A stretch of DNA of 64,000 nt from a virus (lineage: Duplodnaviria > Caudoviricetes): IMG/VR virus record IMGVR_UViG_2030936005_000025, positions 128,001 through 192,000 of that record; one strand, written 5' to 3'. The notes beneath the pieces were generated by a model. It made no database searches. It was given only the letters and a program-made list of their open reading frames with translations, and was not told where the DNA came from. The position numbers and the translations under genes were made by a program. This document shows, piece by piece, positions 15,023 to 17,630 of the stretch; within the stretch, counting starts at the first letter, position 1; every line of letters starts with the position of its first letter.

Positions 15023-15556
15023 TTAACGGTGCACGTAGTTGTGCAGATTTTGCGCAGCTTTGGTTGCGAACATGGCTGTAAACTTAGTCATGTCAAACAT
15101 CTGCGTAAAGGTATCACGCGAGCGAGCATGCTCGGAAAGCAGGGTGATGAACATGATGAAACGCTTGTAGCGAACCAGTTCACTTGCGTTAATCAGACCT
15201 TCCAGGGTAGACAGCGGGGCCAGGACATTGTTCCATTCGAACGCGTTCTGGTTCTTACCCACAGTGATCAGGAAATAGTCCAATGCTTCTTTACATTGAG
15301 CGTAATCCATCTCCAGCATACCCCAACAGGTTTTGATCACACTCTTCTGCTGGTTGCGACGTTCTTCCAACGTACCGGCAGCGATCTCACCTTTCAGGAA
15401 CTTAACGAAATCGTCGATACCATTTTTATAGATATCAACTGGACCGTTAACAACACGGGTTTCGTTCTCTTGGGTATTCTGCTGTTCAGCTTCTACCTGA
15501 GCAGTAACCGCGTTCTGACGCTTCTCTACTTTTGGTGGGGTGAAATTATCGCCCAT
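15023..15556 (-). CDS. Conserved hypothetical protein (177 aa)
   Basis: TAATG stop/start coupling to the upstream ORF. Confidence 0.65.
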   Translation of the reverse strand: MGDNFTPPKVEKRQNAVTAQVEAEQQNTQENETRVVNGPVDIYKNGIDDFVKFLKGEIAAGTLEERRNQQKSVIKTCWGMLEMDYAQCKEALDYFLITVGKNQNAFEWNNVLAPLSTLEGLINASELVRYKRFIMFITLLSEHARSRDTFTQMFDMTKFTAMFATKAAQNLHNYVHR

Positions 15557-15981
15557 TATTTATCTCCACGTTGAGCGGCTTGAAGTGCCGCCAATTCACT
15601 TTTATTCATACCGTGACCAGAGGCAGCTTGTGCAGCAGCGCGATCGGCCGCAGCCTTCTTCTGCTTGGCGAGATCCTCTTGACCACGACCGACTCCTTCC
15701 AAAATATCGTCCATGAGATCGATTGGCATCTCAAGACAGTCTTTTAATGAAAGGAACTTACTGTATTCCCGTGACCCGAAGGTGTGCCCAAAGTTCTTTG
15801 CAGACCAGAGATGGAATAGATCTCTACGCTGATGGTTATATTTGAGCTGGGGGTTACCATTTTGGTTATCACCCACCCAGCCTCGCATTACCATAGCAAT
15901 CTTCCGGTTGATCATTGCCCTTTTGAGAGCGTCCTTCTCATTAGCATGTTTGACAAACAGAGCCAGTGCTTTGTTCACCAT
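15556..15981 (-). CDS. Hypothetical ORF (141 aa); probably the C-terminal part of a -1 frameshift fusion with 16008..17630
   Basis: Its frame is open upstream to 16122 with no Met. The SD is poorly spaced (TAAGG only 2 nt before ATG). Confidence 0.6.
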   Translation of the reverse strand: MVNKALALFVKHANEKDALKRAMINRKIAMVMRGWVGDNQNGNPQLKYNHQRRDLFHLWSAKNFGHTFGSREYSKFLSLKDCLEMPIDLMDDILEGVGRGQEDLAKQKKAAADRAAAQAASGHGMNKSELAALQAAQRGDK

Positions 15982-16007
15982 TGCCTTAGGAAGGTCACTC
16001 TCATCAG

Positions 16008-17630
16008 TTAAGAAAGATTTTCCTCGATAGTACTCGCCGCGGTCTCTCTCATACCAATCATCATTCGGGTACGGTCGAAAAAATTCATGATCGGATCGAT
16101 CGGCGTAAAGCCTTTGATCATTTCATGATCTTTCATTTCAGAAGTTTGTTTACACGCTGGGCATGTGTCATTCGGAATACCGACATAGGTAAACGTCATG
16201 CGCGGGATAGAGGTGATGAGTTTCTGAAGTGCCTGAACGTACAGGTCTTCATCATCGCTGAAGTTATCCAACAGACCTTGTTCAAAGCTCTCTGGATCTT
16301 CATCACGTTTGATGACTTCAATCTCACCTTCAGTACCCGGCTCTGGATCATACTCAACGCTTTCGATCCACTGAAGATATTCACTACCACGGATACCCGA
16401 CATGTACTGCTTACGCTTCTCTGCAAACTTCTCTGTGTTAGGGAAGTCCATAGCAAGCTGACGCAGCTCTGGGTTGATGCGGTTGCTCATACGGTGGAAG
16501 GTGGCGAAGAAGTCATCCAGGTAAGGGATACCTACGTTATAACGACCGAGACCAGGAATAGGAATAGTAGTATCCAGTTCCTTGCCTTCTTGATCCTTGT
16601 ACACCGGGCGCAGTTTAGCCAACTCTTCACGTGACAGCTTGCGACCTTTGTTTACCACCTCGTAAAGAACTTCACGACGTTCTTCTGACATGTCTTCTTC
16701 AACATCCAGAACCATGGTGGTTGGATCGACAACCTGAACATCTGCATGCGCACATTTGTTTGCTACACAGTACATACGGAAGGACACGCCTTTCGGTGCT
16801 GTGGTGCAGAGCAGACCCATTACCATTGGGTTCAAGTCGTTCAACATAATGTAACGCTTGAGCTCAAAGTGATCGACCACATCTTTCACGCTGTGATACT
16901 TCACACGATCCAGAATAAAGTCAACCAGGATCTCACCGATACCAGCACGTTCCAGGTGCAGCGCACTGACGTTGTAACGCTCACCGTAGGTTTGCAGGCG
17001 AGTACCGATGGTGTTGATCAGACGGATAAGGTCTGGTGCAGTTGGAATTTCAACACGCAGGAAGATCAATGAGTTCAACAGAATAATGTTGAAGGTGTCA
17101 GGATCACCACGACCACCACGCAGATGACGACGCATACGGTCACGCGGTGACAGTGATTTATCGTTGCTTGGTTTAACCGGGGAGATAGTGCCGATACGGG
17201 TACCGTCTTTACCTGGGACAGTATTCGCCAGGTTTTCACGCAGAGTGATGTCAATGTTCTCATCACGCATCATCAGACGGTCGACACCACGATAGATGAA
17301 GCTCATGTAGTTAACCAACATGGCAACCAGTTCTTCTTCATCCATCTCTGGGAAGTTCTCTTTCACCAGCTCGTCATAGCTGACTTGCAGTGACTTAGAG
17401 TCACGACCCTTGCCGGTGTTTGCTTCTTCGGTCAACGCACGCTGTAAAGCGGTATATGTTGCCGCTGTTTTATAGATGCTACGGTGAACGTCACCAATAG
17501 CACCCACAAAGACAGGAATAATGGTGGGATCGAATTCGCCGTCATGCGCACGAATAACAGAATCACGCAATACCTTCATTGCGGTTTCTTTTTGAATTCC
17601 CTTTTCCAATTCAGACTTTTCTTCGGACAT
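16008..17630 (-). CDS. Conserved protein, phiKZ gp77-like; possible tail/baseplate assembly chaperone
   Basis: 540 aa with Cys motifs YCVANKCAH and TCPACK (possible Zn site); synteny. Function is inference. Confidence 0.55.
   Translation of the reverse strand: MSEEKSELEKGIQKETAMKVLRDSVIRAHDGEFDPTIIPVFVGAIGDVHRSIYKTAATYTALQRALTEEANTGKGRDSKSLQVSYDELVKENFPEMDEEELVAMLVNYMSFIYRGVDRLMMRDENIDITLRENLANTVPGKDGTRIGTISPVKPSNDKSLSPRDRMRRHLRGGRGDPDTFNIILLNSLIFLRVEIPTAPDLIRLINTIGTRLQTYGERYNVSALHLERAGIGEILVDFILDRVKYHSVKDVVDHFELKRYIMLNDLNPMVMGLLCTTAPKGVSFRMYCVANKCAHADVQVVDPTTMVLDVEEDMSEERREVLYEVVNKGRKLSREELAKLRPVYKDQEGKELDTTIPIPGLGRYNVGIPYLDDFFATFHRMSNRINPELRQLAMDFPNTEKFAEKRKQYMSGIRGSEYLQWIESVEYDPEPGTEGEIEVIKRDEDPESFEQGLLDNFSDDEDLYVQALQKLITSIPRMTFTYVGIPNDTCPACKQTSEMKDHEMIKGFTPIDPIMNFFDRTRMMIGMRETAASTIEENLS
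16077..16083 (-). other. Candidate -1 ribosomal frameshift slippery heptamer T TTT TTC
   Basis: Codons 516-518 AAT TTT TTC of the 540-aa ORF form an X XXY YYZ site in the correct phase. The -1 frame continues stop-free into 15556..15981. Confidence 0.6.

Follow-up and report, generated by a model that had tools for sequence, protein, structure and literature searches.

The question raised by this locus is whether two adjacent genes of a phage related to phiKZ are separate genes or a single unit expressed by recoding. The locus lies in a 64,000-nucleotide stretch (here called the window), which corresponds to bases 128001-192000 of the 264,203-bp IMG/VR virus record IMGVR_UViG_2030936005_000025, rated complete. 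On the minus strand of the window, gene A, a homolog of phiKZ gp077, is followed by gene B, which resembles phiKZ gp076, and a run of T residues close to the end of gene A has the form of a -1 slippery heptamer (X_XXY_YYZ). An earlier reading, made from the sequence alone (hereafter the sequence-only reading), had proposed that a programmed -1 slip at this run fuses the gp77-like gene to the following open reading frame (ORF). Comparison of 36 loci across the phage family supports this proposal. We place at about 85% the probability that a programmed -1 ribosomal frameshift, common to the whole family, makes a trans-frame A-B protein of 691 amino acids (aa) beside the 540-aa product of gene A. 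The principal features, in the order in which a ribosome would meet them, are as follows.

17630-16008, minus strand: gene A in the 0 frame, 540 aa, from the ORF list; the short product ends here
16125-16123, minus strand: TGA closing the -1 frame, at a distance of 13 codons before the heptamer
16083-16077, minus strand: slippery heptamer T_TTT_TTC, in phase (third base of the N516 codon, then F517 and F518)
16077-15556, minus strand: reading in the -1 frame, from the re-read C of the heptamer to TAA, 173 codons (translation)
16076-16008, minus strand: 0-frame tail DRTRMMIGMRETAASTIEENLS plus TAA, 22 codons, short product only, dual-coding
16076-15982, minus strand: start-less connector, 32 codons of the -1 frame from the slip site to the first ATG, no Met
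15981-15556, minus strand: gene B as given by the ORF caller, 141 aa, phiKZ gp076-like, phrog_19747

Codons 516-518 of gene A are AAT TTT TTC and are followed by 22 sense codons and the TAA at 16010-16008. Gene B occupies the -1 frame of gene A. From the TGA onwards this frame is open and free of Met through the heptamer to the ATG of gene B, and it translates as RPYPNDDWYERDRGEYYRGKSFLTDESDLPKA up to that ATG, at 15981. A slip at the heptamer would give a predicted product of 518 + 173 = 691 aa. The only bases resembling a Shine-Dalgarno (SD) sequence in front of gene B are AAGG, 2 nucleotides (nt) before its ATG. The sequence-only reading had listed the same features (the in-phase T_TTT_TTC 22 codons before the stop of gene A, the -1 frame opening after the TGA and running without Met into the 141-aa ORF, the closely spaced SD, and a 691-aa product alongside that of 540 aa); its positions, codons and arithmetic were all confirmed. 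In many relatives the stop that closes the -1 frame is only 4 codons upstream of the heptamer, giving an overlap of 88 nt.

Conservation of the reading frame in relatives

The comparison set comprised 36 loci: the window, 28 GenBank phages and 7 IMG/VR contigs not otherwise represented. Together they span more than 20 genera of the Chimalliviridae, with gene A identity to the window falling to approximately 15%. Some counts rest on the 32 of these loci that were tabulated and are given as fractions of 32.

Gene B lies in the -1 frame of gene A in 36/36 loci. The sequence-only reading had suggested examining homologs for the absence of the heptamer or for -1 stops ahead of the gene B ATG. This was done, and in all 36 no stop interrupts the -1 frame between an in-phase T-run, located at a conserved Phe-Phe, and the start annotated for gene B. 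Counted from the slip site, the -1 ORF is 154-180 codons long in every locus, while the +1 frame contains 9-29 stops across the same span. The annotated gap between the two genes varies from 8 to 218 nt, with in-frame indels only and no stops. The 0-frame tail is 22 codons long in 21 of the 32 tabulated loci (overall range 8-24). With the arrangement conserved to this extent in related loci, chance is untenable as an explanation.

The position of the first ATG within the -1 ORF is far from constant, lying 24-114 codons past the slip site depending on the locus. In the GenBank records of the 28 jumbo phages the starts assigned to the gp76-like ORF differ by up to approximately 90 codons, and some are TTG or CTG. 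Since the first in-frame start differs between records, the annotated length of gene B varies from 80 to 151 aa. None of the GenBank records examined has a joined or slippage coding sequence annotated at the A-B junction. The variable starts look like systematic mis-annotation of a trans-frame exon that has no start codon of its own.

Selection on the slippery bases

A perfect heptamer is present in 32 of the 36 loci. The other four (PhiPA3, Noxifer, L046 and L047) carry G_TTT_TTY. Among the tabulated loci there are 22 examples of T_TTT_TTC, seven of T_TTT_TTT, one of T_TTT_TTA and two with G as the first base. The first Phe codon is TTT in 32/32, although TTT accounts for only 10-69% of the Phe codons of gene A, and the codon preceding Phe-Phe ends in T in 30/32, across seven different amino acids (Asn, Ser, Thr, Ala, Gly, Val and Leu). 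In the Kosakonia phage Kc263 the second Phe has been replaced by Leu (TTA), and the resulting T_TTT_TTA is still slippery. In the long ORFs of the window only one of 38 Phe-Phe dipeptides is written NNT TTT TTY, and this is the slip site itself. Selection on the slippery nucleotides therefore appears to exceed that required by the encoded amino acids.

A conserved T-run could also act during transcription. If the phage RNA polymerase were to add one U at the run, such mRNAs would be read straight into gene B. The motif is indeed a homopolymer (T5-T8), it is lengthened by the conserved T in front of Phe-Phe, and it reaches T8 in three clades (Goslar, Ea35-70 and RSL2); in addition, these phages possess their own unusual multisubunit RNA polymerases. 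However, in the 22 loci with T_TTT_TTC the run is only six T followed by C, and in Noxifer it is T5. Runs of T5-T6 are shorter than those known to give appreciable elongation slippage by bacterial polymerases. The X_XXY_YYZ phase is always kept, and survival of the Kc263 heptamer through an amino acid change fits ribosomal slippage. Conservation of Phe-Phe also imposes this phase, which therefore does not in itself decide between ribosomal and transcriptional slippage. Taking these points together, we consider slippage by the polymerase to be very unlikely.

Coding nature of the start-less connector

If gene B were translated independently, a start would be expected between the slip site and its first conserved helix. 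This interval is free of ATG, GTG and TTG in 23/32. When the -1 products are aligned, the segment NKALALFVKHANEKDALK..., whose first codon in the window is the ATG, is seen in most relatives to be encoded ahead of the first ATG. In the AlphaFold 2 model of the window -1 product, residues 1-21 are disordered and confident helices (predicted local distance difference test, pLDDT, 89-96) begin at residue 26; in most relatives the stretch from residue 26 precedes the first ATG. Gene B may start independently in the window phage but not in the majority of its relatives.

Substitutions were counted according to codon position (1/2/3) in the -1 frame and summed over six lineage pairs, with the following results.

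From the gene A stop to the first ATG: 73/60/150 substitutions, 53% at position 3
Undisputed gene B coding sequence: 144/81/281 substitutions, 55% at position 3
A/B overlap: 25/19/23 substitutions, flat, and fewer per codon

The third-position bias ahead of the first ATG is as expected for coding sequence, and the few, evenly distributed substitutions in the overlap are what dual coding predicts.

These data bear on a simpler explanation, in which there is no recoding at all: gene B would be a separate gene, translated from its own ATG, from unusual starts or by reinitiation, and the T-run and relative frame would merely follow from Phe-Phe and common descent. The window and the Erwinia phage AH04 do have a suitably placed gene B ATG, gene B is annotated as a separate gene in every GenBank record examined, and the loci share ancestry, so that 36 loci do not amount to 36 independent trials. 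This explanation does not accommodate the 23 loci with no start ahead of the first helix of B that is conserved and confidently folded, nor the evolution of the start-less stretch in the manner of coding sequence. It is equally at odds with the constant length of the -1 ORF from the slip site while the first ATG wanders by 90 codons, with the restriction to in-frame indels, without stops, across gaps of such different length, and with a choice of codons at the site that opposes local preference in all lineages. We regard it as very improbable. A sequencing error at the homopolymer can be rejected because independent genomes have the same arrangement.

Proposed mechanism and products

With a programmed -1 frameshift at the heptamer, genes A and B would constitute one recoding unit. 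Most ribosomes would stay in the 0 frame, terminate at the TAA (16008) and produce the 540-aa protein with its 22-residue helical tail. A fraction would slip back by one base on U_UUU_UUC (16083-16077) with tRNA-Phe in both the P and A sites, the two anticodons re-pairing with UUU (a tandem -1 slip). Decoding would then resume at CGA and continue for 173 more codons, through the start-less connector and into B. The 691-aa product would consist of residues 1-518 of A, without the tail, joined to a flexible linker and the helical B domain. The long form would presumably be the minor and the short form the major product, and the arrangement would be ancestral to the entire Chimalliviridae family (phiKZ gp77/gp76).

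In the AlphaFold model of A (predicted template modeling score, pTM, 0.78) a terminal helix, residues 513-539, spans the slip site. From the models, the predicted effect of the shift is to exchange the 22-residue tail for a linker rich in Pro, followed by the helical B domain. The last helix of B is charged, with a loosely conserved C-terminal motif resembling L..L.K.L.G.

Among the matches listed in three large protein searches (the best 21-44), none is a single-ORF fusion of A and B. The -1 product, compared with 1.84 billion representative proteins, gave 21 relatives, all of 104-172 aa, and the relatives listed for gene A are all of 529-575 aa. That no lineage was seen in which the junction had been resolved into one ORF argues that both the short and the long forms are needed.

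Lack of a conserved stimulator and other points against frameshifting

Several observations weigh against programmed frameshifting at this site. There is no conserved hairpin or pseudoknot downstream: the RNAalifold consensus of the 17 closest loci has an energy of -3.25 kcal/mol and no covarying pairs. In the window itself, the fold of the 87 nt following the slip site is not more stable than that of shuffled sequences (z = -0.6), which bears out the earlier description of the downstream stem as weak. An upstream SD-like element was not found at the slip site. The G at position 1 of the heptamer in four loci would imply either imperfect P-site re-pairing or slippage of a single tRNA; in these cases an A-site shift or a single-tRNA shift on U_UUY might yield the same protein. 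Finally, because gene B has an ATG in the window, some free B may also be made by this phage.

A stimulatory element is not obligatory at all known -1 frameshift sites. The lack of a conserved stimulator suggests that the efficiency of slippage is probably low or modest.

One conserved nucleotide block lies between the slip site and the connector's end.

16028-16008, minus strand: nucleotide-conserved block GAGGAnnnTCTTTCYTAR, straddling the 0-frame stop

The block is near-invariant in the window and in loci L001-L018, and could form a hairpin of 4-6 bp. In the 17-locus alignment it contains four predicted pairs without covariation. It is constrained in both frames (as EE.LS* and RG.SFL), and dual coding may account for its conservation.

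Identity of the genes and of the phage group

The nearest named relative of the window phage is Erwinia phage AH04 (Meadowvirus), with 77.7% DNA identity across the locus. At this level of identity (approximately 78%) the phage probably represents a new species of that group. Gene A matches phrog_4585 (E = 4e-93) and gene B matches phrog_19747 (E = 1e-21), both families of unknown function. A Pfam search with gene A, gene B and ten distant homologs of A returned nothing meaningful. By tblastn, gene A was found in 71 phage records, and chaining the search through phages EL and PhiPA3 extended this to 246 records, including phiKZ-like phages, PhiPA3, SPN3US, Goslar, Ea35-70 and RSL2.

The designation of the pair as gp77/gp76-like, made originally from the sequence, is correct. 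A note in the PhiPA3 record describes gp074 as similar to phiKZ gp077 and 201phi2-1 gp136, and gp073 as similar to 201phi2-1 gp135. Gene A corresponds to core gene cg18 of nucleus-forming phages (Goslar gp081, phiKZ gp077, RAY gp267; PMC10299810, Table S3), which is entered there as a 'hypothetical protein' and carries no mark as unique to the family (PMC10299810, Table S3). The neighbours of the locus are a gp78-like gene, hypothetical genes of 177 and 220 aa, a DNA polymerase gene and the virion RNA polymerase (vRNAP) beta' gene, and the same synteny is found in relatives. The conserved synteny includes gp78, gp79 and vRNAP beta' gp80, as expected of cg18 (phiKZ gp077).

In two EL-like records, PQ287644.1 (Pseudomonas phage HHBS8_1) and PQ516283.1 (vB_PQ1), the gp77 homolog was matched in two pieces, under two to three 'hypothetical proteins'. 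This suggests either an assembly frameshift or a disrupted gene.

Possible function

The most specific indication of function comes from predicted structures. In a Foldseek search of BFVD with A, its own family is followed by approximately 20 proteins named as baseplate hub subunit, hub assembly protein or chaperone (E-values between 1e-3 and 0.5, template modeling (TM) scores by target of 0.45-0.56, with predicted models on both sides). In the AFDB clusters, 'baseplate protein' models of 221-258 aa align to residues ~160-518 of A with TM scores by hit of 0.52-0.58. In the ESM Atlas, 14-24% of the members of some clusters related to A carry PF12322 (T4_baseplate). Both T4 gp26 and gp51 belong to PF12322, for which the NCBI family name is 'gp26 family baseplate hub assembly chaperone', and a review of the T4 tail lists both proteins as hub assembly chaperones (PMC3004832).

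The core of A (~160-518) would, from these matches, be folded like the baseplate-hub assembly chaperones gp26/gp51 of T4. Residues ~517-518 are the last in the structural alignments, so that the slip site appears to lie at the end of the gp26-like core. A and A-B would then be a non-virion morphogenesis chaperone in two forms at a fixed ratio, in the manner of lambda G/GT but unrelated to it. That the pair is a hub-assembly chaperone made in two forms is a tentative proposal, drawn from the models, to which we give slightly poorer odds than even. The more inclusive statement, that an ancient recoding switch at the end of a gp26/gp51-like chaperone core sets the ratio of tail-helix to gp76-domain forms in all nucleus-forming jumbo phages, we would put somewhat below an even chance.

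A number of results count against a role in hub assembly. An hhalign comparison of the A family with T4 gp26/gp51 was not significant (probability ~1% or less), and PF12322 scores neither on A nor on ten distant homologs. PF12322 also gave no hit in the phage's own genome, a result that is uninformative in view of the absence of hits in the control genomes. Searches for solved structures similar to A or to the -1 product (Foldseek PDB, VIA wide and a PDB sequence profile) gave generic helical matches only. The locus lies among RNA polymerase and DNA polymerase genes and not beside tail genes. In addition, Churi gp256 (equivalent to phiKZ gp077) is among the non-structural proteins detected 15 minutes after infection (PMC11849849). 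This is early for a tail-assembly factor, though the non-structural status fits a chaperone.

Some of these observations would suit a different role, in which the frameshift is real but the pair acts as an early or middle intracellular factor, in replication, transcription or the phage nucleus, with the long form adding a docking or regulatory domain. The genes for virion RNA polymerase beta', a split DNA polymerase and a helicase are neighbours, the Churi homolog is non-structural and already present at 15 minutes, the sequence-profile link to gp26 is not significant, and the text on the Goslar virion model does not name the gp77 homolog among its 28 proteins. Against this, the matches to gp26/gp51-like baseplate folds are consistent in three libraries over residues ~160-518, and assembly chaperones are likewise non-structural. 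Nor is cg18 marked as unique to nucleus-forming phages, which fits a general role in myovirus morphogenesis. An intracellular role of this type has, in our estimation, only just less than an even chance.

The sequence-only reading had described the pair as a G/GT-like assembly-chaperone system. As regards the logic of expression this holds; as regards homology to G/GT it does not; and, with a fold match to gp26/gp51 that is modest, the assembly-chaperone function is plausible only.

Comparison with known systems

Xu, Hendrix and Duda reportedly described, in 2004, a conserved -1 frameshift in the tail assembly chaperones (TACs) of long-tailed phages (lambda G/GT, P2 E/E+E'). The A/B pair is similar to these in several ways: the -1 slip is near the end of the upstream ORF and would give a major short and a minor long protein with a shared N-terminal part, the downstream ORF is without a reliable start, the products are, or for A/B would be, non-virion proteins, and the arrangement is conserved over a large phage group despite sequence divergence. 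However, gene A shows no sequence relationship or clear fold relationship to G/GT. It has no hit to the Pfam TAC families, and the only TAC-like hint comes from the Atlas, where residues 170-306 weakly match a cluster of Phage_TAC_4 (over 103 residues, with a TM by hit of 0.55). Gene A is also approximately four times larger than lambda G. The A/B locus does not adjoin a tape-measure gene, as the earlier reading had cautioned and as the neighbours, with the same synteny in relatives, bear out. Its slippery sequence is a U-run on Phe-Phe, and for A/B a role in tail assembly is only predicted.

Comparison by eye shows features that T4 gp26 has in common with A, namely a C..C pair, a CPxC motif close to the C-terminus, and a Phe-Phe near the end of the core, which in gp26 stands three residues before the end of the protein. 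From gene 26, too, there are two products, gp26 and the internally started gp26'. The differences are that A has an N-terminal extension of ~150 residues together with insertions relative to gp26/gp51, and that the second product of gene 26 results from internal initiation whereas A-B would result from the proposed recoding. T4 gene 25, which starts within a TAATG overlap, is in the -1 frame relative to gene 26, and the last residues of gp26 are ...EFFELL. A slip at the 26/25 junction (L034:3760-3880) was considered and rejected, as the codons for Phe-Phe, TTC TTT, are not slippery and the gap amounts to just four codons.

Outside phage tails, Escherichia coli dnaX (tau/gamma) and the insertion sequences IS3/IS911 resemble A/B in using a tandem -1 slip on X_XXY_YYZ to make two proteins at a set ratio. 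At their sites the heptamer is A_AAA_AAG, preceded by an SD-like element and followed by a hairpin or pseudoknot, whereas A/B has U_UUU_UUY and no conserved stimulator was found. In dnaX, moreover, the shifted product is the shorter of the two, while in A/B it would be the longer.

Novelty and implications

Our search of the literature on phiKZ, jumbo phages and the Chimalliviridae, with most subscription journals outside its reach, found no description of the slip site. Matches to 'gp77' concerned other phages' numbering and not this gene, and were discarded. This outcome, and the absence of a slippage annotation in GenBank, agree with the earlier statement that no recoding event has been described at this locus in phiKZ-like phages. 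The site is, on the comparative evidence, a candidate for a -1 frameshift of canonical type, in a gene family not previously known to have one.

If the frameshift is confirmed, it adds a recoding event to the conserved core of the Chimalliviridae, a family intensely studied for the phage nucleus and for therapy. It would also correct a systematic mis-annotation, since the gp76-like ORFs, called with arbitrary starts (80-151 aa), would be not genes but the C-terminal exon of gp77. The class of 691-aa proteins is missing from the annotated records examined and from the protein-search matches listed, and would be a new species for proteomics and cryo-electron microscopy to seek. The site would, in addition, be a natural U_UUU_UUY sequence that seemingly works without an obvious stimulator. 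Should the link to gp26/gp51 hold, the G/GT logic would be tied to the poorly understood T4-type hub assembly chaperones, and the principle of a frameshifted assembly chaperone, known from lambda- and P2-like phages, would extend to T4-type contractile tails, whose chaperone family is structurally unrelated.

Other features of the locus

Gene A includes two cysteine pairs.

16769-16752, minus strand: C288 and C293 of gene A, nearly invariant cysteines
16163-16152, minus strand: CPAC motif (C490, P491, C493), just upstream of the slip site

In the alignment columns of the A family, C288, C293, C490 and C493 are all nearly invariant although far apart in sequence, and they probably form a structural zinc site. 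The CPxC pair has been lost in the Ralstonia phage RSL2.

The gene following B, of 177 aa (15556..15023, phrog_14374), retains its position in close relatives. The TAA of gene B overlaps the ATG of this gene (TAATG, 15554-15558, minus strand), with a GGAG approximately 8 nt upstream of that ATG. With this overlap and the GGAG, ribosomes finishing the -1 frame could reinitiate on the 177-aa gene.

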